A stretch of 20,000 nt of DNA from the sequence record SRR20825019_488. One strand, given 5' to 3'. The notes beneath the pieces are model-generated. The model made no database searches. It saw only the letters and a program-made list of their open reading frames with translations, and was not told the origin of the DNA. The first letter of the stretch is position 1. Every line of letters begins with the position of its first letter. Of this stretch, positions 1,355 to 15,730 are shown one piece after another. The translations under genes and the position numbers were made by a program.

Positions 1355-1470
1355 TTCACCGGATCTGAAGCATAACGGCCTTCCAGGCTGAGACATCTTA
1401 ACGACACATGGGGTATGGCCGGCTGCGGTTTGCAACGGCCATCAAAAGACATACCGGACATCCGAGGGTG
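1355..1470 (+). ncRNA. Possible structured nrdJ leader (candidate nrdJ RNA motif)
   Basis: Long 5' leader with a hairpin ATGGCCG...CGGCCAT and an alternative GTATG/CATAC pairing just before the RBS. A conserved nrdJ RNA motif is known upstream of proteobacterial nrdJ genes. Not verified with a covariance model. Confidence 0.3.
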
Positions 1471-1473
1471 GCA

Positions 1474-3612
1474 ATGAACGCTAAAGCACAGGCAGTGATA
1501 ACAACAATTCCAATGCAGGAAGCTTCGCTGGACATCTGGAACAGCAAGTACCAACTCAAAACCAAGACCGGCGAACCCGTCGATAAGGACATCGAAGCAA
1601 CCTACGAGCGTGTTGCCACTGCCCTTGCCGAAGTGGAAAACAAAGCCAACCGCGCCAAGCACAAGAAAGAATTCGTCTGGGCCCTGCGCCACGGTGCCAT
1701 CCCCGCTGGCCGCATTACCTCCAACGCCGGTGCGGAAGCCCACAAACCAGCCACGTCCACCATCAACTGCACCGTGTCTGGCTCCGTTCAGGACTCCATG
1801 AACGACATCCTGGAAAAAAACCACGAAGCCGGCCTCACCCTCAAAGCCGGTTGTGGTATTGGTTATGAATTCTCCACCCTGCGCCCCCGCGGCGCCTACG
1901 TTGCCGGTGCGGGTGCCACCACCTCCGGCCCGCTGTCGTTCATGGATATCTTCGACCGCATGTGCTTCACCGTGTCTTCCGCCGGTGGCCGCCGTGGCGC
2001 GCAGATGGCCACCTTCGACGTACACCACCCGGACGTCATCGACTTCATCCAGGCCAAGCGTGAAGACGGCCGCCTGCGCCAGTTCAACCTGTCGCTGCTG
2101 ATCACCGAAGACTTCATCGAAGCCGTGCGCAACGGCGACGACTGGCACCTGTCGTTCCCCGTCACTGAAAAAGAAGTGGAAGACGAAGGCCTGGACCTGT
2201 CCGACGAAACCCAGTTCGTGTACCGCGACTTCCCGATCCAGAAGGGTTACGTGGTCAATGGCGAAGGCAAGGTTGCGTGCCGCATCTACCGCACCCTGAA
2301 AGCCCAGTTCATCTGGGACACCATCATGACCAGCACCTACGACTACGCCGAGCCAGGGTTCATCCTGATCGACAAGGTCAACCAGATGAACAACAACTGG
2401 TTCTGCGAAGACATCCGCGCCACCAACCCCTGTGGCGAACAGCCCCTGCCCCCGTACGGCAGCTGCCTGCTGGGCTCTGTGAACCTGACCATGTTCGTGG
2501 ACTACCCGTTCACCGACAAGGCCAGCTTCAACTATGAGAAGTACCGCAAAGTCGTGGGCATCTTTACCCGCATGCTGGACAACGTAGTGGAAATCAACGG
2601 CCTGCCGCTGGAAGAGCAGCGCCACGAAATTACCTACAAGCGCCGCCACGGCATGGGCATCCTCGGCCTGGGCTCCACCCTCGCCATGCTGCGTATGCCG
2701 TACGGCTCGTCCGAATCCGTGCAGTTTACCGAAGAAGTCGTACGTGAAATGGCCGTGGAAGGCTGGCGCCAGTCCCTGGCCCTGGCCGACGAAAAAGGCC
2801 CGGCGCCGATCATGAACGACGAGTTTGAAGTCACCCCCAAGATGCTGACCAAGTGCCCGCAGCTGTCCCAGGACGGCTACAAACTGGGCGACAAGCTCAA
2901 GGGCAAGGTACTGCACGCCAAGTACAGCAAGTACATGCAGCAGATCGCCGGCGTAGAGCCGGAGCTGATCGAGCAGCTGGCCGAGAAAGGTGGCCGCTTC
3001 ACGCACCACACCTCCATCGCGCCCACCGGCACCATCAGCCTGTCACTGGCCAACAACGCCAGTAACGGCATCGAGCCGAGCTTCTCGCACCACTACGCGC
3101 GTAACATCATTCGCGAAGGGCGCAAGACCAAGGAAAAAGTCGACGTATTCTCCTTCGAGCTGCTGGCTTACCGCCACCTGGTTAACCCCGGTGCCATGCC
3201 CTTCTCCGAAGAAGAAGACAAGCGCCTGCCCCATTACTTCACCACGTCTGAAGACGTGACGCCGGCGCAGCACGTGGACATCCAGGCCGCGGCCCAACTG
3301 TGGGTGGACTCGTCCATCTCCAAGACCGCCAACGTGCCCCAGGACTTCGCGTATCCGGACTTCAAAGACATCTACATGTACGCCTACGACAAGGGCCTGA
3401 AGGGTTGCACCACCTTCCGCTTTAACCCGGAAGCCTTCCAGGGCGTGCTGGTTCAGGAGAAAGACCTGGAAAACACACTGTACGAATTCACCCTGGACGA
3501 CGGCAGCAAGGTGACCCTCAAGGGCAACGAACAGGTGGAGTACGACGGTGAGCTCCATAACGCCGCCAACCTGTTTGATGCGCTTAAAGAAGGCACCTAC
3601 GGCAAATACTGA
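1474..3612 (+). CDS. nrdJa: Adenosylcobalamin-dependent (class II) ribonucleotide reductase, large subunit
   Basis: RNR motifs TINC, GGRRGAQM, ATNPCGEQ (thiyl Cys/Glu), GSCLLGS, IAPTGTIS, SISKT and KGCTTFR. No ATP cone. Start reassigned to ATG 1474 after RBS GAGGG (712 aa). Confidence 0.95.
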   Translation: MNAKAQAVITTIPMQEASLDIWNSKYQLKTKTGEPVDKDIEATYERVATALAEVENKANRAKHKKEFVWALRHGAIPAGRITSNAGAEAHKPATSTINCTVSGSVQDSMNDILEKNHEAGLTLKAGCGIGYEFSTLRPRGAYVAGAGATTSGPLSFMDIFDRMCFTVSSAGGRRGAQMATFDVHHPDVIDFIQAKREDGRLRQFNLSLLITEDFIEAVRNGDDWHLSFPVTEKEVEDEGLDLSDETQFVYRDFPIQKGYVVNGEGKVACRIYRTLKAQFIWDTIMTSTYDYAEPGFILIDKVNQMNNNWFCEDIRATNPCGEQPLPPYGSCLLGSVNLTMFVDYPFTDKASFNYEKYRKVVGIFTRMLDNVVEINGLPLEEQRHEITYKRRHGMGILGLGSTLAMLRMPYGSSESVQFTEEVVREMAVEGWRQSLALADEKGPAPIMNDEFEVTPKMLTKCPQLSQDGYKLGDKLKGKVLHAKYSKYMQQIAGVEPELIEQLAEKGGRFTHHTSIAPTGTISLSLANNASNGIEPSFSHHYARNIIREGRKTKEKVDVFSFELLAYRHLVNPGAMPFSEEEDKRLPHYFTTSEDVTPAQHVDIQAAAQLWVDSSISKTANVPQDFAYPDFKDIYMYAYDKGLKGCTTFRFNPEAFQGVLVQEKDLENTLYEFTLDDGSKVTLKGNEQVEYDGELHNAANLFDALKEGTYGKY

Positions 3613-3640
3613 TCCCGGGAACCGACACAGGACAACGAAC

Positions 3641-4330
3641 ATGACCGTTAAAATCAGCAACAAAATCGTCGGCTACCGCGTAAAGAAAGCCGACCCAGAA
3701 GCAGCACAACCAGCCGCGCAGCCGGAAAACAAACCGGTTGAGATGAACGAATACATCGAGCGGCCGGACTTTCTGCTGGGCACCACCTACAAGATCAAGC
3801 CGCCGGTGGCCGAGCACGCGATGTACATCACCATCAATGACATCCTGCTCAACGAAGGCACCGACCACGAAAGCCGGCAGCCGTACGAAGTATTCATCAA
3901 CTCCAAGTCGATGGAACACTTCCAGTGGGTTATCGCCCTCACCCGCGTTGTCTCCGCCGTGTTCCGCAAAGGCGGCGACGTAACCTTCCTGGTGGAAGAA
4001 CTGCGCAGCGTGTACGACCCCAACGGCGGCTACTTCAAGAAAGGCGGCGTATTCATGCCCTCACTTGTCGCCGAAATCGGCGCCGTGATCGAGAAGCACC
4101 TCAAGGCCATCGGCCTGATTGAAAGCGAGGAAATGAGCGAAGTCACCAAACGCATCCTCGCCGAAAAACGCGCCGAATTCGAAGCCAGCCACACCACGGC
4201 CACGAACGACGACAAAGCCGGCGACTACCCACCCAACGCCACCATGTGCGGCAAGTGCAGCACCAAGGCGGTGATTGTGATGGATGGGTGCGCGACTTGC
4301 CTGTCTTGTGGCGATAGTAAGTGCGGTTGA
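3641..4330 (+). CDS. nrdJb: Class II ribonucleotide reductase small (C-terminal) subunit
   Basis: MTVKISNKIVGY...TYKIKPP...YITIND...PYEVFINSK, with a C-terminal Cys cluster CGKC...DGCATCLSCGDSKCG. Immediately follows nrdJa; AGGA RBS before ATG 3641. Confidence 0.92.
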   Translation: MTVKISNKIVGYRVKKADPEAAQPAAQPENKPVEMNEYIERPDFLLGTTYKIKPPVAEHAMYITINDILLNEGTDHESRQPYEVFINSKSMEHFQWVIALTRVVSAVFRKGGDVTFLVEELRSVYDPNGGYFKKGGVFMPSLVAEIGAVIEKHLKAIGLIESEEMSEVTKRILAEKRAEFEASHTTATNDDKAGDYPPNATMCGKCSTKAVIVMDGCATCLSCGDSKCG

Positions 4331-4356
4331 GGTGATTGACTGCGATGTGTGATGAG

Positions 4357-4395
4357 AAGGCCTGGAGTGTGAAAGCTTCGGGCCTTTTTTGTTTT
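4357..4395 (+). terminator. Rho-independent terminator of nrdJab
   Basis: AAGGCCTGGAG / CTTCGGGCCTT stem followed by TTTTTTGTTTT. Confidence 0.85.
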
Positions 4396-4500
4396 CGCTC
4401 GGATGTAATCGCCTGACCGCTTCGTTATTACGTGGCGATATTACGACAGAGCTAGGCATCCGACTCGCAACATCTTGAAATATTGGCGGCTTTTAGGCGT

Positions 4501-4591
4501 GCGTTCTATATTTTTGCGGAATAACGACGCGCAGTAATGCCGAAGTCACGTTTTGGAATATTGAAGCGTTCTATCAAGTACGCAGTTAGGT
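4501..4591 (+). other. attI-like integron recombination site at the head of the array
   Basis: Core site GTTAGGT (4585-4591) is the exact complement of the first cassette's inverse core ACCTAAC (5990-5996). The upstream sequence is not palindromic (so not an attC) but has direct repeats GCGTTCTAT (4501, 4566), GGAATA and CGCAGT. Confidence 0.6.
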
Positions 4592-4642
4592 ATAGGCGCT
4601 GATCGAAAAATATCTTTATTTTTCAATAACAAGGAGAACGAA

Positions 4643-5584
4643 ATGCCAAATGTTGTAAGTATGATTAATTGGAAGGGTGGCGTGGGGAAAACATCACTTA
4701 CGCTACATCTCGCGTCAGGTTTAGCTACACGGCATAGTAAGCGCGTTCTCCTGATTGACCTGGATGCTCAGTGCAACCTATCTTTTTTAGCTGTCGGCCT
4801 CTCTCCTTATGTTGACCACACCTATAAGCGTAACGGGCCAACATTGAAAACGATTTTTGATGCATACTTTGATCGTAGTTCTCTGAATCCAAAAGATGTG
4901 ATCTTGGAGAAGCAGGTTCGTGCGCGTGCCGGAAAGATATACACCCAAGTCGGTATCATCTTGTCTCACCAAGAACTCACCTTGCTAGATATGAAGCTTG
5001 CTCGTGAAAAGAGGTCGGGGAAGGACCATAGAGAGGAAACCCGATTTGAGATAGAAAAGCTTTCTGTAATTAAAAATATAATAGACTCAGTTTCGGATGA
5101 ATACGATTATGTACTTCTAGATTGCCCACCAAACGTCAATCTGGTTACCCAAAATGCTTTTTTTGCAAGCGACTACTATGTTGTTCCGGCGATTCCAGAT
5201 TTTTTATCAACCGTTGGTATCTCTTTGATTACAAAATACATGGATCAGTTCAATAAAGATTATAGTTCGATGTGGAGTTATGCAGGGCTTCCTGGAAGTT
5301 ACAACGATACAAAGTTTGGTGGAATTATTTTCAACATGGTTGACGAGTACGGTGGTGGTCCTAAGGACGGTCATCAGCAAATCATTAACTCCACTGCGTC
5401 GCAACTTGGCAAAGGAGCAGTTTTTGATAAATATGTTACGGATGGTGATGGCATGTCAGCGGCAGCACAAGTAAATCTTCCTGTATTTGCTTTTGCTGAC
5501 CTACCACGATCCCAGCAAAACGCCCAAAAGCAAGCTACGTATCTTGAGGGCGTGGTCGATGAGTTTATCACGCGAATTATATAA
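4643..5584 (+). CDS. ParA/Soj-family ATPase (cassette 1, gene 1)
   Basis: Deviant Walker A KGGVGKTS, A' motif LLIDLDAQCNLS, Walker B YVLLDCPP. RBS AAGGAG. 313 aa. Confidence 0.9.
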   Translation: MPNVVSMINWKGGVGKTSLTLHLASGLATRHSKRVLLIDLDAQCNLSFLAVGLSPYVDHTYKRNGPTLKTIFDAYFDRSSLNPKDVILEKQVRARAGKIYTQVGIILSHQELTLLDMKLAREKRSGKDHREETRFEIEKLSVIKNIIDSVSDEYDYVLLDCPPNVNLVTQNAFFASDYYVVPAIPDFLSTVGISLITKYMDQFNKDYSSMWSYAGLPGSYNDTKFGGIIFNMVDEYGGGPKDGHQQIINSTASQLGKGAVFDKYVTDGDGMSAAAQVNLPVFAFADLPRSQQNAQKQATYLEGVVDEFITRII

Positions 5585-5596
5585 GGTGGCTAATCT

Positions 5597-5995
5597 ATGA
5601 AGACACATGAGCTAGCCAACCAACTTGAATTGTTGGCAAAATTACTCAGAAGTATGCCAGACACTGAGTTTAGTGAAGCAAGTGGAGAGCAAGTGCAGCA
5701 CTCTCTACAACTATTTGAGAGCAAAACTACTAAGCCTTCTTCTCGTGCCAACAAATCATTGCCAAAAGGAATAGAAGAAAGCCTCTCAGGGAAATCTCCG
5801 GCTGAAATTGAAAAATTCCTTAGTTCCGAGGATGAGAACTTTTCCCTTAATAATCTCTTAGAGTTTGCGGAGCGTTTAGGTATTTCTACTTCAAAGCGGC
5901 AAAGCAAAAGTGCAGTAATAAACCTCATTACTAGGCATTTTGAGGCAAAGCAAATGCATTCGATAATTCGCAACACTAAGCCCGATGATACCTAA
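5597..5995 (+). CDS. Hypothetical ParA partner with a C-terminal Rho_N/HeH-like helical motif (cassette 1, gene 2)
   Basis: 132 aa, 12 bp after parA with no attC between them. The stop TAA lies within the attC inverse core. 'SLNNLLEFAERLGISTSKRQSKSAVINLI' resembles helix-extension-helix nucleic-acid-binding modules. Confidence 0.7.
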   Translation: MKTHELANQLELLAKLLRSMPDTEFSEASGEQVQHSLQLFESKTTKPSSRANKSLPKGIEESLSGKSPAEIEKFLSSEDENFSLNNLLEFAERLGISTSKRQSKSAVINLITRHFEAKQMHSIIRNTKPDDT

Positions 5996-6073
5996 CCAAA
6001 ACAGGCACGGCGACGGCTACTCCACTGCGGCTGCGCCTCCATTCCGTAGCCGCGCGTGCTGTTGGCGTTAACG
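5990..6073 (+). repeat. attC site 1 (84 bp)
   Basis: ACCTAAC...GTTAACG with palindromic arms (CAGGCACG/CGTGCTG, CGGCTAC/GTAGCCG). Homologous to attC3 and attC4. Confidence 0.9.
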
Positions 6074-6095
6074 TTTTATCTATCAGAAGGAGTTC

Positions 6096-6743
6096 GTGTT
6101 GTCTCTGAAAGGTTTGATTGAAGAAGGTGCTGTAGCGAAACGTCTACTGAAGCCCGTTTTTTCGTGGGGTAGAGGCTCCTGGTTCAAAAGGCTTTTGGTT
6201 TTAAGTCTGTTTGGTCTGATTTTTATCACTGGTTACTACCTATTACTTCAGTCACTGCTTTCAGAGGTCAGAAAGCATGATGATCAGGTGTCAAAAGAAA
6301 GGAATCGGATTGTAGACGCAAGTCTCTACCAAGCAACGATTGGTTTTGCGGAGCTGTGTCTTAAACCGGCAACGATAGATAAAGAGAACGCCTCTTGGTA
6401 TTGCGAAAAGGCTTTGCAGTTGTATAAGAACAACAACAAAGGAACGCCACCTGAATTAAGGAATGAGATTGTCGAACGTAAGGCGTACGGGGCTATGGTT
6501 GCCGACATGGAATCTCAACTTAGAGGTATCAAGCTAGATCGACTTGATCAGACGTCCCCTGCTCTTGATTGGCTTGATCAGATATTGAGCAAAACTGGTA
6601 TGTTTTTAACATTGTCCTTGGCTCTCTTCGGTATTTTGGCTTTGGTGTACGGCCTATATTTACACCGTGACAATTCGGAATCTGATGAGCCAGAAGGGGG
6701 TTCCAGTAATTCTCAAAACACGTTAACAAGTGGGTCAAGCTGA
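6096..6743 (+). CDS. Hypothetical membrane protein with two TM segments (cassette 2)
   Basis: GTG start with AGGAG RBS. Hydrophobic stretches at about aa 33-54 and 167-187. The ORF reads into the attC. Confidence 0.7.
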   Translation: MLSLKGLIEEGAVAKRLLKPVFSWGRGSWFKRLLVLSLFGLIFITGYYLLLQSLLSEVRKHDDQVSKERNRIVDASLYQATIGFAELCLKPATIDKENASWYCEKALQLYKNNNKGTPPELRNEIVERKAYGAMVADMESQLRGIKLDRLDQTSPALDWLDQILSKTGMFLTLSLALFGILALVYGLYLHRDNSESDEPEGGSSNSQNTLTSGSS

Positions 6744-6798
6744 CCGGGGTAAGTCCAACAATGTGCTTCGCACGTTGCCCCTTCGCAAAGCGTTAGGC
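6721..6798 (+). repeat. attC site 2 (78 bp, different family, right arm degenerate)
   Basis: CGTTAAC (complement of the previous core GTTAACG)...GTTAGGC, with a central hairpin CAATGTGC-TTC-GCACGTTG. Confidence 0.75.
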
Positions 6799-6809
6799 AT
6801 GAGGGAGTT

Positions 6810-7301
6810 ATGGATAATTCTGACTACATAGCACTTGGATCGGCTGTAATTGCTTTGGCGGCTTTTGGAGTCGCCATATGGCAGGGACATATAAGCCGAC
6901 GGCACAATATTTTGTCAGTTAAGCCACGCTTTCATATTGATAAGAGCTATATCGAAGGCCTTCACTATCGGCTGGAGAGTCAGGGGCTAGGTCCTGGAGT
7001 AGTGAGAGAATTTTCCATTCTTGTGAATGAGCAAGAAATTACCGACCCTACAGAAGATCCATGGCCCGACATATTCAAAGCTCTAGGGGTAACCGGGATC
7101 AATTATGATTTTCACATCCCGGCGGTTGGATCAACCCACGCACCCAACACCTCAAGGCAGCTGCTAAGCGTTACCTTTGCCAATATTTCAACTGACCCCA
7201 AAGTGATTGAGACGATTGATCAAGCAATAAACTTTAGGATTAAATTCAAATCACTGTATGAGAATGAGATGTTCTCTTACAAAGGGGGGGAGGATGCCTA
7301 A
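6810..7301 (+). CDS. Hypothetical protein with an N-terminal membrane anchor (cassette 3)
   Basis: GGGAG RBS. N-terminal helix IALGSAVIALAAFGVAIW. The stop TAA lies inside GCCTAAC. Confidence 0.75.
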   Translation: MDNSDYIALGSAVIALAAFGVAIWQGHISRRHNILSVKPRFHIDKSYIEGLHYRLESQGLGPGVVREFSILVNEQEITDPTEDPWPDIFKALGVTGINYDFHIPAVGSTHAPNTSRQLLSVTFANISTDPKVIETIDQAINFRIKFKSLYENEMFSYKGGEDA

Positions 7302-7380
7302 CCATCGCAGGCACAGCGACGGCTTCTCCATTGCAGCTTCGCCTCCCCTCCATTCCAAAGCCGCGCATGCTGCAGGCGTT
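7296..7380 (+). repeat. attC site 3, interrupted at GTT by a MITE (original core resumes at 7549-7555)
   Basis: GCCTAAC CATCGCAGGCACAGCGACGGCTT...AAGCCGCGCATGCTGCAGGC GTT. Aligns with attC1 and attC4 apart from a 5-bp CCTCC duplication. Confidence 0.88.
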
Positions 7381-7548
7381 GAGGCTGTAGAAAATGTCCC
7401 GAGGTATTCTGGGGTGGCGCTCATACGTGAAATTTGAAGGATTTTTCGGAGCAAAATATGCCTCAGATTTTATGAAAAGGCGCTATTTTTAGTGCGAAAT
7501 TTAAACAACTCGAGGCTTCGAAATAACTCTGGGGTTTTCTACAGCCTC
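7381..7548. mobile_element. MITE / non-autonomous IS derivative (168 bp)
   Basis: Perfect 14-bp terminal inverted repeats GAGGCTGTAGAAAA (7381-7394) / TTTTCTACAGCCTC (7535-7548), flanked by a GTT direct repeat (7378-7380, 7549-7551). No internal gene. Confidence 0.85.
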
Positions 7549-7564
7549 GTTAGGCGAGAATCGA

Positions 7565-8059
7565 ATGAGCATACTAGCCACACATGCACAGGATTTCCTG
7601 AATGCCTACGAGATCTTAAGGGAGAGCAACGACTCGTTCGTTAAACAGAACATACCTGATGCAGATGAACGGTGTATCGGAAAAACTTTTGGTACTCGTC
7701 CTGCAATGGGTGTCGATATCGTTTGCTTGGCATTTTCGGTCGAATTGCATTTGAAGGAACTGCATCGGGTGTCTTATGGCAAGATCCCTCGAGGACACAA
7801 GATCATTGAGCTTTTCAAGGCTTTGTCGGGAGCAGAACAGGAAGGAGTCGTTTCTCACCATTCCATAGCACGATACGGTTGGGATTGCGCACAATTGAAA
7901 TGTGAGCTACTTGCCATCAGCGACAGTTTCGAAAAGTGGAGATACGCCTACGAGAGCACAGCCCTCCGGTACAACATTTATTTCGCGAAGGCTCTAATAG
8001 AGGCTCTGCAATTCGTAGCAGCAAGAAAAGGAGGCGTGCATGAGGCAAGGCGCACCTAG
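7565..8059 (+). CDS. HEPN-like domain protein (cassette 4)
   Basis: Motif pattern 'LAFSVELHLK...RGHKIIELFKAL...FEKWRYAYE' is typical of HEPN-fold proteins. The stop TAG lies in the inverse core position. Confidence 0.7.
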   Translation: MSILATHAQDFLNAYEILRESNDSFVKQNIPDADERCIGKTFGTRPAMGVDIVCLAFSVELHLKELHRVSYGKIPRGHKIIELFKALSGAEQEGVVSHHSIARYGWDCAQLKCELLAISDSFEKWRYAYESTALRYNIYFAKALIEALQFVAARKGGVHEARRT

Positions 8060-8137
8060 CAAGCGCAGACATCGCGACGGCTTTTTCATTGCGGCTTCGC
8101 CTTCATTTCAAAGCCGCGCATGCTGCGGTCGTTATAT
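8054..8137 (+). repeat. attC site 4 (84 bp, inverse core mutated)
   Basis: ACCTAGC...GTTATAT. The body is homologous to attC1 and attC3. AAC>AGC change in the inverse core. Confidence 0.85.
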
Positions 8138-8153
8138 TTTACAGGGAGGTTGA

Positions 8154-8714
8154 ATGGACACCCAGCAGTTACTTGAGGCTGCGCAGACAATCGACATTCT
8201 TCGATCAATGTTCGCCGATGATAAAAACGAATGGTTGCCGGTCATTGCAGCAATTGGGGGTGCATTCGTAGGCGGTATCTCGACCTTCGTCCCTAGCTAT
8301 CTTCTGGAAAAGAGGAAGTTAAAGCAGGAGGCGCGCTCCGTAGAAACCGCCCTTGTTTCCGAAGTATCAGCCTTGCTCGAGGTTATTGAGCATCGAAGGT
8401 ACGTCTACGGATTGGAGGAGTCGGTTCACTATCTCAAGCAGAATCCTGGTAAGAAAAAGGTTTTTGCGACAAAAATACCTGAGCACTACTCACGTATTTA
8501 TCAAGAGCACATCTCCAAGATTGGTCTGCTTCACCCCGACCTGTCTGCAAAAATCATCCGGTTTCATCAACTGATAGATTCGGGAGTCCAAGACATCTCT
8601 ACAGGAGGCTTTATCGCAGAAACTGGTGGTGGCATTGAAGCTTTCGAAGAGTTACTCGAAATATTCTATTCGGCAGTGAAGATCGGCCGAGAGATTGTCG
8701 GAACAGAAATATAA
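8154..8714 (+). CDS. Hypothetical protein with a single TM segment (cassette 5)
   Basis: GGGAGG RBS. Hydrophobic WLPVIAAIGGAFVGGISTFV segment followed by a helical domain. The stop TAA lies within ATATAAC. Confidence 0.75.
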   Translation: MDTQQLLEAAQTIDILRSMFADDKNEWLPVIAAIGGAFVGGISTFVPSYLLEKRKLKQEARSVETALVSEVSALLEVIEHRRYVYGLEESVHYLKQNPGKKKVFATKIPEHYSRIYQEHISKIGLLHPDLSAKIIRFHQLIDSGVQDISTGGFIAETGGGIEAFEELLEIFYSAVKIGREIVGTEI

Positions 8715-8769
8715 CCAGTCGCTGTAGTACGCGGTGCACTTACCCCAGTGAGAGAGGCTGCCGTTGATG
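8709..8769 (+). repeat. Truncated/degenerate attC site 5
   Basis: ATATAAC (8709-8715) is the exact complement of the preceding core GTTATAT and is followed by CAGTCGCTGTAG. The right arm is not recognisable. Possible core GTTGATG at 8763-8769. Confidence 0.5.
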
Positions 8770-9330
8770 GACGAAGAGGAATCCCTAAACAGAGCAATTC
8801 ACGAAGATGTGAAGCTCTACCAATACAACCCCAACTGGCCAGCAATGTTCCAGGATGAGCGGGACCGCCTCCTTCATTTGTTTCCGGGTGAGTTTCTGGC
8901 GATCGAACATATCGGCAGCACCGCAGTACCCGGCCTATCGGCCAAGCCGATCATCGATATCCTGGCGGGGGTAGATTCGATGTCACGGGCCGATGAGTTA
9001 ATGGAACCGTTGTGCCAGTCAAAATACGCTACCTCAATGGATTTCAATGCCTCGTTAGTGGATCGGCGTTGGCTTATGCGATGGGCCGAGGGGCGCAGGA
9101 CACATCACCTGCATCTTATGGTGTTCGGTAGTCAGGAGTGGGATCGGCGCCTGGCCTTTCGGAACATACTTCGTGCCAATACGGAACTGGCACAACGGTA
9201 TGAGCAAAATAAGCGGATGTGGGTGGCGGAATTCCGTTCGGATAGAGAGGCCTATACTGCGGCTAAAGCAGATTTTATACGGGAGGCATTGAACCACTGC
9301 AACCCAGCTTCAGGACACAAGATCAGATGA
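8767..9330 (+). CDS. GrpB family protein (UPF0157, nucleotidyltransferase-like)
   Basis: YNPNWPAMF...IEHIGSTAVPGLSAKPIIDI...HHLHL...FRNILR...YTAAKADFI signature. Confidence 0.9.
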   Translation: MDEEESLNRAIHEDVKLYQYNPNWPAMFQDERDRLLHLFPGEFLAIEHIGSTAVPGLSAKPIIDILAGVDSMSRADELMEPLCQSKYATSMDFNASLVDRRWLMRWAEGRRTHHLHLMVFGSQEWDRRLAFRNILRANTELAQRYEQNKRMWVAEFRSDREAYTAAKADFIREALNHCNPASGHKIR

Positions 9331-9680
9331 GCGAATTCGTCGATAACCTCAATGATGTATTTTGCCAGTTCGGCCCGGTTTCCGTTCGGCGTATGTTCGG
9401 TGGCTATGGTGTGTACCACGATGGCGTGATGTTTGGCCTTGTTGCGGATGATGTTCTGTATCTGAAGGTCGATGGGGAATCGATGGGGCGGTTTACAGAG
9501 CTGGATTTGGAGCCGTTCGAATACGAGAAAAATGGCGCTAAGATTAAGATGTCTTACTACATGGCACCGGAGAGCATTTTCGAGGATTCTGAAGAGGCAA
9601 AAGAATGGGCAGAGCTGGCATTCAATGCGGCGCTCCGGGCCAGGAAACCAGCAGCAAGAACCAAGGCAAACAAGAAATGA
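9327..9680 (+). CDS. TfoX/Sxy N-terminal domain protein
   Basis: RRMFGGYGVY-DGVMFGLV-DDVLYLKVD...PFEY...MSYY. ATGA overlap with grpB. Confidence 0.88.
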   Translation: MSEFVDNLNDVFCQFGPVSVRRMFGGYGVYHDGVMFGLVADDVLYLKVDGESMGRFTELDLEPFEYEKNGAKIKMSYYMAPESIFEDSEEAKEWAELAFNAALRARKPAARTKANKK

Positions 9681-9760
9681 CCGCCTACGTAATCGTCCAT
9701 GGACTTACCCCGGTACAGTAGGCGCTCCTAGCCTTTGATCGGAGCATAAGAGGAATTTTC

Positions 9761-10501
9761 ATGAGAGTAGGCTTGCTGATCATCGTCGCATTCTGGTGCC
9801 TTCCAGTTTCTTCCCAAACGCTCGAAATTATGGGGTCGGACGAGGGTTTTCTGCCGTTTTATTACGGTGACAACCTTAACAAGGGCATTCTGGTTGAGGT
9901 GATCAATGAGTTCAGCCTGGAGGCCGGTATTACAGCCGGTTTTCGCCCGATGCCGCGCAAGCGCCAGGCCTGGGCCCTGGAAAAAGGACAAGCCAACGCG
10001 GTTTTTGCCAACCCGTTGTGGATGCCGCTACCAAGCCGGATGCACGCCGTCGGACCGGTGTTAACCTGGCGAGATCGTCTGTTCGCACAACCTGGCCGAC
10101 AACCGGCCTCCTTCGATGATCTTGATGGCAGCATCTGTCTGCGAAAATGGTTTGTCTACAGTGATCAACTTGAGCGGCGGATTGGTACCAACCTGGCCCG
10201 CCATGACTCTTATAATGCCCAACAGATGCTGGGCATGTTTCTGAACAAACGCTGCGATTACGCCGTCATGAACGAAATGGAGTTCCGGTTTCTGGCAAAG
10301 TTGGTGGAAGTCGATCCGAATTTTTACAGCACGGAACTGATCGACGCCGAATGGCCGGTCTATCTTGGTATCCTCAAAACCGAGGCGGCTCTGATTGAAG
10401 CGGCGGAAGCTTTTTTCGCTACCCGCACGGTTGATGCGGAAGCCATGCTACCCAAACTGCCGCCGCCGGACCGGCACATCTCGATTCAGCCGGACAAGTA
10501 A
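9761..10501 (+). CDS. Periplasmic substrate-binding protein (family 3-like)
   Basis: Signal peptide, then 'FLPFYY...GILVEVI...MPRKR...LEKG' and 'MFLNKRCDYAV'. RBS GAGG. Confidence 0.7.
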   Translation: MRVGLLIIVAFWCLPVSSQTLEIMGSDEGFLPFYYGDNLNKGILVEVINEFSLEAGITAGFRPMPRKRQAWALEKGQANAVFANPLWMPLPSRMHAVGPVLTWRDRLFAQPGRQPASFDDLDGSICLRKWFVYSDQLERRIGTNLARHDSYNAQQMLGMFLNKRCDYAVMNEMEFRFLAKLVEVDPNFYSTELIDAEWPVYLGILKTEAALIEAAEAFFATRTVDAEAMLPKLPPPDRHISIQPDK

Positions 10502-10515
10502 GGCAACTGATTACT

Positions 10516-11619
10516 ATGACCGCTACCCTCACCATGGATCATTTGCGCCGCTACGCCATCTCGCGCAGTCTCTTCAAGCCGACCACTTTGGCACGTGCGA
10601 TCAATAAACTGGGTTTTGTCCAGCTCGACCCAATACGAGCGCCGGCACGGGCGCAGGATTTGACGCTCCGCCATCGTGTTATCGACTACCAGGCGGGTGA
10701 CCTGGAGGCTCGCTACCCGCGCCTGGCGGTCGAGGAAGATTTCTTTATCAACTACGGGGTTCTGCCCCGCACCACGCAGCGCCTTATGCACCCGCGCACG
10801 GCGCGCACCGAGTGGCCACGCTCACGCTGGGAACAGGCGCAGGCGGTGCAGGAATTTGTGCAAAGCCGTGGTGTCGTTCACCCGCGCGAGGTGGACTCAG
10901 CCTTCGAGCATGGCACCACCAAGAATTGGTTCGGCGGTAATAGCCGTGCCAGTACGCAGCTCCTGGACGGCATGCATTATCGTGGGCTGCTGCGTGTGGC
11001 GAAGCGCGAAGGCGGGGTACGCCTGTATGCGCCGCCGCTCGCTGATGAGCTCGACGCGGTGAACCCGGATACCACTCTGGACGCATTGGTCGACGTCGCA
11101 GTCGCAAAGTATGCCCCGCTGCCTGCGGCTACGCTCAGCCGCCTGGTAACGAGCGTGAGTTCTTCAGCGGTCCCGCAGTGGCGCGAGCGTCGTCGTGAAG
11201 CACTCGCGCGTGCAAAGGCTCGCCTGCCCCAGGCGACAGTTGATGGCTGTCGCTGGTTTTGGCCCATCGGCGAGAATCCTGGCAGTCGCCGCTTTGCGAG
11301 TGACAATGTGCTGGATGACCGCCTGCGCCTACTGGCGCCCTTCGATCCTTTAGTTTGGGACCGCGATCGCTTTGAGCGTTTCTGGGGCTGGGCCTACCGT
11401 TTTGAGGCCTACACTCCGGCACCAAAGCGGGTGCGTGGTTACTATGCACTACCTATGCTGTGGCGCGGTCATGTCATAGGCTGGGCTAATGCCGCCGTAC
11501 GTAATGGGCAACTGGAGCTAGAGCCAGGGTACGTGCGCGGACATGCCCCAGACGACACCGCGTTCAAGCCAGCGTTGCAGGACGAGCGGGTACGCCTCGA
11601 GCGCTTTCTTTCGCTGTGA
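10516..11619 (+). CDS. AlkZ/YcaQ-like DNA glycosylase (HTH_42, interstrand crosslink repair family)
   Basis: GFVQLDPI (QxD catalytic motif), LLAPFDPLVWDRDR, FWGWAYRFEAYTPAPKRVRGYYALPML. Confidence 0.88.
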   Translation: MTATLTMDHLRRYAISRSLFKPTTLARAINKLGFVQLDPIRAPARAQDLTLRHRVIDYQAGDLEARYPRLAVEEDFFINYGVLPRTTQRLMHPRTARTEWPRSRWEQAQAVQEFVQSRGVVHPREVDSAFEHGTTKNWFGGNSRASTQLLDGMHYRGLLRVAKREGGVRLYAPPLADELDAVNPDTTLDALVDVAVAKYAPLPAATLSRLVTSVSSSAVPQWRERRREALARAKARLPQATVDGCRWFWPIGENPGSRRFASDNVLDDRLRLLAPFDPLVWDRDRFERFWGWAYRFEAYTPAPKRVRGYYALPMLWRGHVIGWANAAVRNGQLELEPGYVRGHAPDDTAFKPALQDERVRLERFLSL

Positions 11620-11689
11620 GGCTCGGTGTGCGTGCGTAAAATGAGAGCAGTGTACTTGAAGTGACACCCTCCACCAGGGAGAAGCCCGG

Positions 11690-12232
11690 ATGGGTCTGAA
11701 AGAACATTTCCAATTATTGGCCGCTTACAATCAGTGGATGAACGCAAAGGTCTACGAAGCGGCCGGTCGCCTCTCCGCCTCGGAGTTAGCCAAGGACCGT
11801 GGGGCCTTCTTCGGCTCCATTCTGGGAACGCTCAATCACATCGTTGTGGCGGACACCGTGTGGCTCAAACGGTTTGTGACCCATCCATCCTGCGTGGACA
11901 CGTTTCAGACGGTCGCTGAGCTCGACAATCCTGCCAGCCTGGATCAGATCCTCTTTGACGATCTCGGGCGTTTAAAAGAACACCGGATCTGGCTGGATCG
12001 CCAGATTATCGACTGGATATCCCATCCCTCCGAAGGCGACCTGGATGTTGTTCTCAGTTATCACAACATGAAAGGTGTTTCCGCCAACAAGCGGTATTCG
12101 AGCCTGGTTCTCCATTTCTTTAACCATCAAACCCACCACCGCGGGCAAGTTTCAACGTTGCTGTCGCAGGCAGGCGTGGATGTTGGCGTTACCGACCTGT
12201 TGGAACGGATTCCGGATGAAACGCAGGTATAA
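11690..12232 (+). CDS. DinB/YfiT-family protein
   Basis: YNQWMN...AFFGSILGTLNHIVVADTVWL...HFFNHQTHHRGQ metal-binding His motif. Confidence 0.9.
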   Translation: MGLKEHFQLLAAYNQWMNAKVYEAAGRLSASELAKDRGAFFGSILGTLNHIVVADTVWLKRFVTHPSCVDTFQTVAELDNPASLDQILFDDLGRLKEHRIWLDRQIIDWISHPSEGDLDVVLSYHNMKGVSANKRYSSLVLHFFNHQTHHRGQVSTLLSQAGVDVGVTDLLERIPDETQV

Positions 12233-12310
12233 CACGACAAACAACCTCATCCGGTCCTTTTTACCTACGGGTTGGGAGGTAACGATGAACTCTGGTAGCA
12301 GGTCTTTTGA

Positions 12311-12763
12311 ATGAATATGGATATCTCGATCCAGCAAGGAACAGCTGAACACCTCTCGGGCATACACCACCTTGTTCTGGAATGGGGGTATTCCTCCAAC
12401 GAATCTCAGACTGGGGCATGGCTAGAGGCGTTGTTGGAATCCCCGAGCCATCAGATATGGGTGGCTATTTCAGATGCCGCAGTGGTTGGGTGGGCGGTCG
12501 CCGAGAGGCGTATTTCTATCCGTGAGCTGTTTACCTCTGAGATCACTGGGCTGGTCGTGAGCGCCAATGTTCGACGGGCGGGTGTTGGGCGCTTGCTCGT
12601 TCAGGCTGTTGAAGACTGGTCCCGCGCCAAAGGGCTCTCACGGGTTGTGGTACGATCCAATGTGAGTCGTTCGGAGTCCCATGGGTTTTACCCGTCTATC
12701 GGTTTCGAGCATGCAAAGACGACTCATGTTTATGTGAAAGATCTGGATGGGTCCACGCTATGA
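12311..12763 (+). CDS. GNAT family N-acetyltransferase
   Basis: LVVSANVRRAGVGRLLV acetyl-CoA motif A and SHGFYPSIGF motif B. Confidence 0.88.
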   Translation: MNMDISIQQGTAEHLSGIHHLVLEWGYSSNESQTGAWLEALLESPSHQIWVAISDAAVVGWAVAERRISIRELFTSEITGLVVSANVRRAGVGRLLVQAVEDWSRAKGLSRVVVRSNVSRSESHGFYPSIGFEHAKTTHVYVKDLDGSTL

Positions 12764-13056
12764 AGTGCATTTTCACCATACTTTTGGTCATAGGCCTTAT
12801 TGGTTGTGCTTCGCAGCAATCAGCCGTCGACCTGAAGAACTCGGATTCTGCCATCATTGGTGAAAAGCCTGAAGGTTATCCAAAAACCTTTATCAAGCGC
12901 CTGCCTGATTTGCCCGGCTTTTGTATTGAAGTGACAGAAGACTGGAGAAAACATCCGTATCAGGGTGAGACGATCTGGCTGAAGGAAAAGACGATAAAGA
13001 GCCTGAACTGCCCTGGGGAACCCTTGCCGGGCTCTACCAATGTATTGAAGAGATAA
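12760..13056 (+). CDS. Small hypothetical lipoprotein
   Basis: Signal peptide with lipobox LIGC. ATGA overlap with the GNAT gene. Confidence 0.65.
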   Translation: MKCIFTILLVIGLIGCASQQSAVDLKNSDSAIIGEKPEGYPKTFIKRLPDLPGFCIEVTEDWRKHPYQGETIWLKEKTIKSLNCPGEPLPGSTNVLKR

Positions 13057-13059
13057 AGA

Positions 13060-13290
13060 ATGATTGACCGCAAATATCACAGAATCGTATTTTCGTTTTT
13101 CATGTCACTGTTGATGTCCTGCATCATGTCGCTGGTGATCAGCGTTTTTAACGTGGGGTGGACCAGCAATATCGTTTCAATCTGGCTGAATGCCTGGCTT
13201 TTTGCGTTTGTCGTCGCCTTTCCCACCATCATGCTGGTGTCGCCCGTGGTTCACAAGCTGGTCAGCCTGGCGTTGAAGGACGAGGCTTGA
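13060..13290 (+). CDS. DUF2798 family small membrane protein
   Basis: 76 aa, 'FSFFMSLLMSCIMS...WLNAWLFAFVVAFPT...PVV'. Confidence 0.8.
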   Translation: MIDRKYHRIVFSFFMSLLMSCIMSLVISVFNVGWTSNIVSIWLNAWLFAFVVAFPTIMLVSPVVHKLVSLALKDEA

Positions 13291-13299
13291 TTTCTATTT

Positions 13300-14475
13300 C
13301 TATGCCTCTGCTCGGAGCAACCTCGGCCGCTTGCGCTTCATCTGCCAGCGCCAGAGCCATTCCAGGGGCCCTTGGGTGAACAGCCGCAGCCAGACGGCGC
13401 TGAAGATCATCTGGGCGATGAAAAATACCGTTGAATACAGCATCAGCGCTGCGAGCGAGAGTGAGGCGAAGCGGTCGCCCCACATGCCATAGAACACGCA
13501 GATGCAGACGGCGGACTGCAGAATGTAGTTGGTGAGCGCCATACGACCGGTTGGCGCAAGGGCTGAGCGAACCACACCGGTCAAGCGCCCCCTGCCCCGC
13601 CACCAGAGCAGCAGAACGGCACCATAGCCCATGGCAAGCAACGGTGGAGCGCCTACACCGCCCAGCAAACTTACAACCCTGTGGGCCAGGCTCTCTTCAC
13701 CCAGTTTGACCTCGGCCATGGCCAGGGCGGTGCCGACCACCAGGCCAACCAGTGCCACCACAATCAATAGCCGGACATGGCCCGAATTGCGCTCCGCCAG
13801 GTGCAGGCGGGCAGCAGCGGCGCCAAATAGAAACATCGCCATCACCCGTAGGGGGCGCAGGTGTTCAATCCGATCCAGAAACACGCTGACGCTGAGGTAG
13901 GCATTGGCTTCGACCACCTCCAGGTAACTCCCCCCACTCAGGGCTGGCACATTGTCCTGCAGCAGGCGCAGTGAAAGGCCGCTTCCGAGATCCGCCAACC
14001 CCAACTGGGGCTCGAACCAGAGTGCTACACCCGTGACTACCAGCAGGGCAACGCCGCAGGCAGCCAGCGTTGGAGCGCGAACGTTCAGGAAGGCCCCCAG
14101 GAAAAGCCCCATTACCCCGTACAGCATGAGGATGTCCCACGGGGATAGGAACAGAGAATGGGCGGTGCCAATAACCAGCAGCCCCAGCATTCGCCGCAAG
14201 TGATAGCGGACGGGGCTTTGCTGTACCCGCTGGGCCAGCATCATGAAGCTGTAACCAAACAGCAGGGAGAACAGGCTGTAGAACTTGGCCCGCACCAGGA
14301 TGTCCAGCCAGGTGGCAATGGGTTCGTCCCATTCCGACCAGGTTAACGCTTGCCTTGTGTCAGCGGAGACGAACCCCCAGCCCGAGAACACCTGAATATT
14401 AATCAGCAGGATACCGAAGATGGCAAAGCCCCGAAGGGCATCCAGACCGTCAATACGTTCGCCTTTGCTCGCCAT
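13300..14475 (-). CDS. DUF418 (YeiB-like) membrane protein
   Basis: RIDGLDALRGFAIFGILLINI, KFYSLFSLLFG, GRMALTNYILQS, QGPLEWLWR. Start reassigned to ATG 14475 (GGAG RBS). Confidence 0.88.
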   Translation of the reverse strand: MASKGERIDGLDALRGFAIFGILLINIQVFSGWGFVSADTRQALTWSEWDEPIATWLDILVRAKFYSLFSLLFGYSFMMLAQRVQQSPVRYHLRRMLGLLVIGTAHSLFLSPWDILMLYGVMGLFLGAFLNVRAPTLAACGVALLVVTGVALWFEPQLGLADLGSGLSLRLLQDNVPALSGGSYLEVVEANAYLSVSVFLDRIEHLRPLRVMAMFLFGAAAARLHLAERNSGHVRLLIVVALVGLVVGTALAMAEVKLGEESLAHRVVSLLGGVGAPPLLAMGYGAVLLLWWRGRGRLTGVVRSALAPTGRMALTNYILQSAVCICVFYGMWGDRFASLSLAALMLYSTVFFIAQMIFSAVWLRLFTQGPLEWLWRWQMKRKRPRLLRAEA

Positions 14476-14668
14476 TTCGGATACTCCCTGCGCCGCAGTT
14501 GGGTTCTTTCCGTATAAACGCAACCTTCGCATATCAGGTTTAGCGGTAATAGATGAAGATCGCTTGAAGGCTACCGGATCGTAACTGGCGGTTCGTTGAC
14601 AGCCGTCGGACTGTGCACGCAGCATTGGAACCCTTAGCATTTGTAACCCGGCGCAAACAGGGAGCTCC

Positions 14669-15730
14669 ATGAATCTGCAACCTATCTTCTCGCAGGCCGG
14701 TGCGGCACTGTTGGCCCTCTTCGTTCTCAGCCTGGGTTCTGTGGCCCAGGCCGATGACTGGTCCCCGACTCTGCAGAAAGAAATCGAACGCATTGACCGA
14801 ACCTTCTCTGGCGATCTCGGGGTCTACATCCGTCATCTGGGTACGGGCCAGAAGGTTTCTCATAACATCGACCAGGACTGGTATCTGGCCTCTACCGTCA
14901 AAATTCCGCTAGCCATCGTATTGATGCAACGTGCCGAGAACGAAGGCCTGGATCTGGAGCAGAAACTCACTCTCCGGGCTGCAGATTATGTGGATGGCAC
15001 TGGAGATCTGCTCTGGGTGGACCCCGGTGCCCGTTACAGCCTGGAAGAGCTCAACAGACGCTCTATTGTCGACAGTGACAGCACAGCAACCGACATGTTG
15101 ATACGTTTTCTTGGCGAGAAATCATTCGGAGAGGATGTGGCACGGCTGGTTCCCGAAGGGCTGGGGCCGATTACCACGATCCTCCAGGTGCGCTACGACG
15201 CATACAGGGAAGTTCACCCCAGTGTTTCGGTGCTGACCAATCGTGATTTCATCGATCTGAAAACCGCCCGCACCTACCAGGCGCGGTACGATATGTTGCT
15301 GGAAAAACTCAACATTACTGCAAGAGAGGCGGATGCCAAAGGCGTGCGTGAAGCCTTTGAGCGCTATTACCAGCGGGGAATCAACTCAGGCAGTCTCGAA
15401 GCCTTCGGGGCATTGCTGGAGCAACTGGTCAGGGGCGAACTGTTGAATGACGCCCACACGGACCAATTGCTGGGGTATCTATCCGAAATAACCACGGGTG
15501 ATCACCGGATTGCAGGGGGCTTGCCAGCGGGCACCCATTTCGCCCACAAAACCGGCACCCAGGTGGCCCGCTCCTGCGATATCGGCCTGCTCAACCCCCA
15601 GGCACCCGATGAAGCGGTTATCGTCGCGGTTTGCGCACGCGATTATGCAGCCCTGTCGGAAGCGGAAAGAGCCTATCAGGCGATTGGCAATGCGCTGCAT
15701 GAGTCGGGGCTAACGAGGACCGTAGATTAA
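14669..15730 (+). CDS. Class A beta-lactamase-like serine hydrolase (periplasmic)
   Basis: Signal peptide, SxxK (ASTVK), SDS in place of SDN, and HKTGT. Confidence 0.8.
   Translation: MNLQPIFSQAGAALLALFVLSLGSVAQADDWSPTLQKEIERIDRTFSGDLGVYIRHLGTGQKVSHNIDQDWYLASTVKIPLAIVLMQRAENEGLDLEQKLTLRAADYVDGTGDLLWVDPGARYSLEELNRRSIVDSDSTATDMLIRFLGEKSFGEDVARLVPEGLGPITTILQVRYDAYREVHPSVSVLTNRDFIDLKTARTYQARYDMLLEKLNITAREADAKGVREAFERYYQRGINSGSLEAFGALLEQLVRGELLNDAHTDQLLGYLSEITTGDHRIAGGLPAGTHFAHKTGTQVARSCDIGLLNPQAPDEAVIVAVCARDYAALSEAERAYQAIGNALHESGLTRTVD

Follow-up and report, generated by a model that had tools for sequence, protein, structure and literature searches.

In a 20,000-nt stretch of DNA from sequence record SRR20825019_488 (hereafter the window, with all positions counted over this whole stretch), the segment from 4586 to 6067 on the plus strand is a complete two-gene integron cassette that encodes a 313-aa ParA/Soj-type ATPase and, directly behind it, a 132-aa partner protein of an undescribed family. 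The two genes stand together at every intact locus compared, and the pair recurs in three independent kinds of defence cargo slot, namely integron cassettes, the P4 hotspot and the P2 hotspot. We propose that the pair is a self-contained mobile module, carried as conflict cargo by integron arrays, phage satellites, prophages and mobilisable islands and acting against phages and/or plasmids, a reading to which we give an even chance of being right.

The ends of the cassette were set by comparison with a public DNA run, X9, in which the same unit lies between other flanks: an 8605-nt contig matches positions 4585-6067 with 51 substitutions and 11 gap letters, is unlike the window on either side of this interval, and breaks off at the G|TT of GTTAGGT and of GTTAAC, the crossover position being after the G of each core site. 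These breakpoints at 4585 and 6067 therefore identify 4586-6067 as a mobile unit delimited by its true recombination ends, exactly the bounds that a first-pass annotation of the window had drawn, and the pair moves as a single integron cassette. The upstream recombination site is an R'-type core site, GTTAGGT (4585-4591, plus strand), at whose first letter the likeness to X9 begins. The attC occupies 5990-6072 on the plus strand, with its R'' element ACCTAAC overlapping the stop codon of the partner gene and its R' element GTTAAC at 6067-6072, the crossover falling after G6067; its hairpin is modest (z = -1.4). Both open reading frames (ORFs) lie on the plus strand, separated by 12 nt and preceded by the ribosome-binding-site-like motifs AAGGAG and AAGGTGG, respectively, with no attC between them. 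Only about 55 nt precede parA inside the cassette. An inverted repeat with 11-nt arms and a 4-nt spacer (4602-4627) ends 16 nt 5' of the ParA start and, from its sequence, might possibly be an operator; it is not a conserved motif at the other loci compared.

The cassette is also found elsewhere in public data. A sampled-word index places the entire 4400-6100 stretch in five more runs, which come from two other studies, besides a run that may be the source of the window. Three metatranscriptome runs contain short contigs identical to the window at a depth of 2-3.5 (4451-4597; 5455-5721, which spans the junction of the two genes; and 5601-5768). Since such libraries may contain DNA and the contigs show neither strand nor transcript ends, they give a weak hint of expression. 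In X9, the attC type of the cassette (5996-6052) occurs on at least seven contigs, with a summed depth of about 580 compared with about 100 for the cassette body, i.e., roughly 6-fold, which points to a large cassette array in the X9 organism.

The first gene (4643-5584, plus strand) encodes an ATPase with a deviant Walker A motif and matches the Pfam families AAA_31 (2.8e-35, 122 bits, cut-off 27) and CbiA (3.7e-14, 53 bits, cut-off 25.4). The deviant Walker A motif, NWKGGVGKT, covers residues 9-17, and since it begins at residue 9 the protein has no HTH (helix-turn-helix) domain at its N terminus. In an alignment of 24 relatives with a mean column identity of 76%, K11 and K16 are invariant in all 24 members, as are D39 and D41 of the Walker A' motif (DLDxQ) and D160 of the Walker B motif (LLDCPP); the ATPase is presumably active. 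Its AlphaFold 2 (AF2) model (pLDDT 86, pTM 0.88) finds its top Foldseek matches in ParA (8ray), Soj (2bek, 1wcv and 6iub) and McdA (6non and 6nop), with TMt values of 0.82-0.88, the delta protein (2oze) ranking lower. Identity to the solved ParA structures is 16-21%, and the best match, to 8ray, has an E-value of 3e-15 at a TMt of 0.87. Against the NCBIfam partition equivalog NF041546 (ParA_partition) the protein scores 63.7 bits, far under the 180-bit cut-off. The 313-aa protein is a bona fide ParA/Soj-type ATPase of a separate subfamily. Compared with the X9 copy, 25 of the 30 listed differences in parA fall at third codon positions, suggesting purifying selection on the ATPase.

The partner gene (5597-5995, plus strand) begins 12 nt 3' of parA, and none of the families in Pfam, NCBIfam or PADLOC matches its product above threshold. 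A set of 5.8 billion proteins contains 64 homologues, and a profile that includes divergent members collects 200 representative clusters at 50% identity among 1.84 billion proteins, nearly all of them stand-alone proteins of 125-170 aa. The AF2 model (pLDDT 71) is all-helical, with no strand, and consists of a helix at residues 3-18 and a helical domain at residues 57-127, joined by a linker of low confidence, the three-part layout that the first-pass annotation had read from the sequence. The amphipathic N-terminal helix (5603-5650, plus strand) is the most conserved block of the family, with the consensus MKTHELAxxLExLAKLLRxLP, and we infer that it contacts ParA. It is followed by a variable linker rich in Lys, Ser and Glu, and by a C-terminal block with the consensus LxELAxRLGIxxSKRQSKxALxNxIxRHFEAxxMxxIIR. 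Three of the eight listed differences between the partner gene and its X9 copy are at third codon positions, and the listed changes affect residues 18-45, that is, the end of the N-terminal helix and the linker.

What the C-terminal domain (residues 57-127; 5765-5977, plus strand) might be was approached from fold and profile likeness, and several signals, singly weak, agree with one another. In a VIA-align comparison the C-domain of T4 endonuclease VII came first (Z 6.0, rmsd 2.0, 52 residues) and the N-terminal domain of Rho (residues 1-48) third (Z 5.2), followed at Z values of about 4 by the SAP domains of Hcc-1, DEK, MKL1, Ku70 and FAN1 and by the LEM domain of emerin, all of these values lying under the tool's own confidence level for small helical domains. 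The family profile also matches an 1803-aa protein, P0290, in five stretches (E 1.4e-7), and this protein carries Rho_N (1.4e-36) and SAP (1.1e-33) according to Pfam. Two relatives with a duplicated C-domain, P0279 and P0297, show sub-threshold Rho_N matches (18-20 bits, cut-off 24.9), endonuclease VII matches in PHROGs are weak and limited to the C-terminal part of the partner profile, and the nearest named cluster in the ESM Atlas is Rho_N (0.80), which serves as a lead only. The partner's own C-domain reaches the gathering score of neither Rho_N nor SAP in Pfam, and a search of solved structures with the family profile gave nothing below E 0.04. A Foldseek search with the whole model, which the first-pass annotation had suggested as a check on the partner, came back empty, as no PDB entry matched at E<=0.001. 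We consider an HeH module of the SAP/Rho_N/endonuclease VII C-domain kind, probably binding nucleic acid, to be the best reading of these sequence and model comparisons, in line with the HeH/Rho_N-like label first given to the partner. The partner contains no catalytic domain. Identification as HEPN_RiboL-PSP was discarded, the score being 19.1 bits against a cut-off of 28.4 and the Rx4-6H motif being unconserved in the family alignments. Distant members of the family (P0279, P0289, P0297, P0302 and P0322; 204-244 aa) carry the same N-terminal helix followed by two tandem HeH modules.

Linkage of the two genes was examined in 185,579 species genomes, where 25 loci carry a ParA with at least 50% identity and the next best match does not exceed 40%; the scan rests on two peptide patterns and may have missed some loci. 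The partner lies directly 3' of ParA in 24 of the 24 genome and plasmid loci whose ParA (at least 50% identity) is intact or merely cut by the contig end, and likewise in five of five IMG/VR loci, with the genes overlapping or 8-12 nt apart. Such linkage at 29 of 29 intact loci indicates a functionally coupled, self-contained pair, which upholds the coupling that the first-pass annotation had supposed. A complex prediction for two ParA chains, one partner and two ATP, run without alignments, scored 0.00 and is uninformative either way on binding. The carriers belong to Beta-, Gamma-, Alpha- and Deltaproteobacteria, Firmicutes (Oscillibacter, Lachnospiraceae, Heliorestis and Sporosarcina) and Bacteroidota, a patchy spread across several phyla at 52-87% identity. 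Over one set of seven loci, identity is 79-87% for ParA but only 46-56% for the partner. A conserved ATPase with a fast-changing partner would fit an arrangement of effector plus specificity factor, going by the sequences, and a similar asymmetry of conservation is shown by ParA-ParB pairs. Decayed copies exist as well: both genes are broken in L011 and L031, ParA is truncated beside an intact partner in L002, L033 retains ParA residues 1-168 only, and L034 holds a truncated ParA near a contig end. L002 and L033 belong to one metagenome-assembled genome, and in L002 the last 134 residues of ParA remain, next to the intact partner and an adjoining reverse transcriptase gene. Matches to 'RT' and 'Cas1' defence models beside L002 come from a single protein that also matches homing-endonuclease models and is probably the reverse transcriptase of a group II intron; they were not counted as defence context.

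The proposal of a conflict role draws on where the homologues sit. Four or five loci are cassette settings, namely the window itself, L016, L004, L025 and probably L017: the sequence GTTAGCT, of the same GTTAGNT form as the upstream core site of the window, lies 50-53 nt 5' of the ParA start codon in L016 and L004, L025 has an attC-like flank and L017 direct-repeat flanks, and the genome of L016 encodes a true intI (413 bits) on another contig. In four P4-like satellites (L093, L092, L094 and L011), the pair occupies the position between the integrase gene and psu, being the only cargo in L093 and standing beside an abortive-infection (Abi) gene in two others, AIPR in L092 and a RexA-like gene in L094, whereas both genes are broken in L011, a Klebsiella pneumoniae satellite. 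Rousset et al. (2022; PMC9122126), in the part consulted, describe two hotspots of antiviral systems, the int-psu slot of P4 and the cos-proximal slot of P2, the latter flanked by gpA and by gpQ, the portal gene. In L091 the adjoining genes are those for the portal and a gpP-like terminase of a P2-like prophage, a position that matches the P2 slot, in L023 it lies behind a tape-measure gene, and in L014 (Pseudoxanthomonas) it is 68 nt from HamB/HamA, i.e., the Hachiman system.

Several observations nevertheless weigh against a conflict role. Most neighbours at the 25 chromosomal loci serve housekeeping or transport functions, examples being genes for methylmalonyl-CoA mutase, anthranilate synthase and serine dehydratase and an AcrB efflux operon, and clear defence neighbours occur at these loci in L014 only. 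The models of PADLOC-DB 2.0 match over the length of the P-loop only (PDC-M28B, 18.5 and 14.9 bits; 13 bits for the partner), and neither protein carries a nuclease, protease, pore or other killing domain according to Pfam and NCBIfam. The enterobacterial (Klebsiella) version has no DNA-level match in 5,426 complete E. coli genomes, and a relaxase gene of the MobA/MobL type precedes the pair in L029 and L030 (Brenneria and Klebsiella grimontii). P4 can live as a plasmid, so that its satellite slot is also compatible with a maintenance role. Moreover, in the portion of Rousset et al. [quoted passage not shown] The defence-like or anti-mobile-element function advanced in the first-pass annotation is partly supported, by the recognised anti-phage cargo slots that homologues occupy, but no PADLOC model backs it.

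The maintenance role leads to the question of partition. The pair could be a minimal partition or positioning system with a new type of DNA-binding adaptor, which stabilises episomal forms such as plasmids, excised islands or the plasmid state of P4, its presence in integrons being functionless hitch-hiking. The gene order speaks for this: in type Ib par loci, too, parA precedes the gene of a small partner that has a helix at its N terminus and a DNA-binding-like domain at its C terminus. The ParA fold, moreover, is closest to Soj, ParA and McdA. So do certain neighbours. L090, an element of 38 kb that is filed as viral, has the pair beginning about 130 nt behind a Rep3 gene; a 204-kb Pantoea plasmid carries it at a distance of 3.6 kb from repA, adjoined by a toxin/immunity pair of contact-dependent inhibition; and the MobA/MobL genes of L029 and L030 are of the same tenor. 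The rep-proximal place in L090 and in the Pantoea plasmid is where a par locus would sit, which counts against the conflict role in turn. However, another ParA-type gene is already present in both plasmid-like carriers, one of 222 aa in L090 and a 402-aa ORF in the Pantoea plasmid. The order in L090 (5571-9346) is a 222-aa type Ib-like ParA with a 96-aa ORF, Rep3, the 313-aa ParA (85% identical to that of the window) with its partner, and a resolvase, so that two ParA systems surround one rep gene.

The distribution of the pair and the make-up of the cassette further oppose partition. At E<=1e-30, four of 72,556 plasmid records match, namely two near-identical Pantoea plasmids, a Klebsiella chromosome of 5.4 Mb that had been filed as a plasmid, and a generic ParA at 30% identity, and none of 50,697 phage genome records does; most copies are in chromosomal, non-replicating contexts. 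No centromere-like repeats are found in or beside the cassette, in which only about 55 nt precede parA: there are 0 tandem-repeat arrays in 4300-6200 and no iteron-like array, only scattered two-copy matches of 10-16 nt. Neither ParB_N/Srx nor a ribbon-helix-helix (RHH) or HTH family is detected in the partner by Pfam and NCBIfam, and the score against the partition equivalog is well under its cut-off, as given above. The first-pass annotation had likewise noted neither a ParB/Srx domain nor parS-like repeats. We conclude from the plasmid, phage and repeat searches that the pair does not represent a type Ib par locus of the ordinary plasmid kind, as had been supposed at the outset, and we hold the broader partition explanation to be rather unlikely. 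The initial statement that partition makes little sense for such a cassette was nonetheless too strong, given that the pair lies near the rep genes of two plasmid-like replicons and a stabilising role on episomes is therefore possible.

Tight coupling of the genes, overlapping or 8-12 nt apart as they are, also invites comparison with addiction modules, which two-gene cassettes of chromosomal integrons often are. In such a toxin-antitoxin-like pair, free ParA would be harmful (it might, for instance, coat the nucleoid or block replication or division) unless restrained by the partner, and the pair would stabilise arrays and islands with no immune role. The decay pattern is compatible with this, both genes being lost in L011 and L031 and ParA being the decayed one in L002 and L033. 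Nevertheless, neither protein matches a toxin or antitoxin family in Pfam or NCBIfam, a very strongly conserved ATPase of 313 aa is atypical as a toxin, and the order (long gene first, small gene second) as well as the sizes differ from the usual type II pairs. We therefore regard addiction as improbable.

Beyond genetic conflict altogether, the pair might benefit the host by positioning a non-DNA cargo or a regulator, comparable to McdAB, ParC/ParP and PpfA/TlpT, and ParA-type ATPases with small unrelated partners do position many cargos according to the section of PMC9178275 consulted. A third gene that could serve as cargo is nevertheless absent: among 129 neighbours of the 25 chromosomal loci, no Pfam family occurs more than twice. 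Besides, the pair is rare and patchy, crosses phyla and travels on mobile elements, which makes us consider this explanation very improbable.

Returning to the conflict role, a working scheme can be drawn from the known behaviour of related ATPases. ATP-bound ParA would dimerise and bind DNA non-specifically, as Soj does, and the N-terminal helix of the partner would dock on the ParA dimer and set its ATPase cycle, comparable to the N-terminal peptides of ParB, ParG, MinE and McdB. The HeH module might tie the partner to nucleic acid, possibly to invading or branched replicating DNA. The pair would then mislocalise or sequester foreign DNA or disturb its ParABS-type segregation, for which ParI provides a precedent. 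Alternatively, the partner may be titrated during infection, whereupon ParA would lock onto the nucleoid and arrest the cell, a form of abortive infection. Specificity or sensing would fall to the partner, which evolves fast, and ParA, with its high conservation, would be the effector and act on a universal target. In its most far-reaching form, the scheme amounts to immunity by a gradient ATPase of the ParA/MinD type, which would be the first of its kind: a fast-evolving HeH adaptor detects a foreign protein or the DNA of an invader, be it phage, satellite or plasmid, and the ParA switch, bound to the nucleoid, drags or sequesters the invader from replication, segregation or packaging, or freezes the host nucleoid, working by mislocalisation and not by degradation from a 1.5-kb cassette that spreads between phyla. 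This version is offered tentatively, as a possibility with somewhat less than an even chance.

The cassette opens an array whose surroundings are as follows. Upstream lies a class II-like ribonucleotide reductase gene, nrdJ, read in two frames that overlap, with the barrel domain in 1408-3612 and the TSCPD domain in 3548-4330; they match the Pfam families Ribonuc_red_lgC and TSCPD and are followed by a terminator-like hairpin at 4354-4389. The two frames (1408-4330) represent either a naturally split gene, like nrdJa/nrdJb of Pseudomonas, or a frameshift. From about 4500 onward the G+C content drops from 0.56-0.60 in the nrdJ flank to 0.40-0.47 (0.40-0.43 in the cassette itself), and a row of ORFs on one strand is spaced by a repeat family of attC make-up with three copies (5990-6070, 7296-7376 and 8054-8134), whose bottom strands form hairpins with imperfect pairing. 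The 20 window ORFs scanned include no integrase gene, and nrdJ is directly upstream of the array. The assignment of the cassette to first position thus stands in that it is the first one after nrdJ, but no integrase marks the start of the array, which as far as the window shows is without one.

Between nrdJ and the first cassette, 4418-4563 contains the direct repeats CGTTATTACG/CGATATTACG at 4423-4445 and ACATCTTGAAATATTG/ACGTTTTGGAATATTG at 4470-4485 and 4548-4563, together with an inverted repeat (4418-4432 and 4517-4531); these may be remnants of attI or of a decayed attC. A promoter-like site at 4483-4512 was dismissed, such sites being found no more often than by chance (4 found, 3.0 expected). 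Further along, 6096-8714 encodes four more cassette ORFs (215, 163, 164 and 186 aa) with no Pfam, NCBIfam or PADLOC match, and 7381-7555 is a 175-nt unit without an ORF, placed between two core sites and ending in GTTAGGC, with perfect 14-nt inverted repeats at 7381-7394 and 7535-7548. The 3' end of this unit (TTTCTACAGCCTCGTTAGGC) is almost identical to the sequence just 5' of the ParA cassette in L016. A second short repeat, GGGGTAAGTCCA and its complement, occurs at three intergenic sites (6743-6757, 8735-8752 and 9700-9714). To the right of the array, 8764-15730 carries genes for GrpB, TfoX_N, an AlkZ-like DNA glycosylase, DinB, a GNAT acetyltransferase, a DUF418 acyltransferase-like membrane protein and, at 14669-15730, a class A beta-lactamase-family protein.

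ParA-type ATPases appear in textbooks as motors for positioning. To the best of our knowledge, none is the core of an anti-phage system, and a single anecdote, that of ParI, ties an island-borne ParA to plasmid exclusion. A fifth of the Vibrio cholerae cassettes that lack a predicted function reportedly defend against phages, according to work cited in a Xanthomonas integron preprint. For its own part that preprint, in the portion consulted, recognises few cassettes as defence. Full-text literature searches returned no description of the pair and no work joining 'ParA-like ATPase' with 'anti-phage', and the main texts of the integron and hotspot papers searched make no mention of ParA, Soj or partition systems, although supplementary tables may list the pair. 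What is new here is the partner family and the lifestyle as cassette and hotspot cargo, and an immune or anti-plasmid role is plausible. Were it true, it would represent a class that is new in mechanism, interfering by way of DNA mislocalisation or a nucleoid switch, and would give a function to the HeH partner family with its roughly 200 clusters at 50% identity; should the pair have no conflict role, it would be a new plasmid-independent ParA-adaptor positioning system. Being strictly two-gene, rare, promiscuously transferred and 1.4 kb long, the pair is directly clonable.

Among known systems, Soj/ParA and the type Ib ParA systems (ParF-ParG and delta-omega) share with the pair the fold, the deviant Walker A motif and a small downstream partner that combines an N-terminal element with a C-terminal domain resembling nucleic-acid-binding ones. 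In contrast to the type Ib systems, the 313-aa ParA is longer, the partner is an all-helical HeH protein instead of a ParB_N/HTH or ribbon-helix-helix one, and the pair lacks centromere repeats and is almost never found on plasmids. With McdA-McdB and MinD-MinE it shares the layout of two genes, the ATPase cycle presumably being driven by a small partner whose fold is unrelated; here, however, no carboxysome or division context is found, the partner is of the HeH kind, and the genes are mobile cargo instead of core genes. ParI, an orphan ParA on an island of Pseudomonas putida KT2440, is reported in the part of PMC9178275 consulted to cause Walker-A-dependent loss of IncP-7 plasmids. Both are ParA-type ATPases borne on islands or other elements, and ParI is a functional precedent for the proposed mechanism; compared by description only, ParI differs in being partnerless and in its Walker A motif, KGGVGKS instead of the KGGVGKT that is invariant here. 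With the defence cargo of the P4 int-psu slot, the P2 cos-proximal slot and integrons, finally, the pair shares the very same slots, and its compact size of about 1.4 kb fits the short systems described there (PMC9122126, in the portion consulted).

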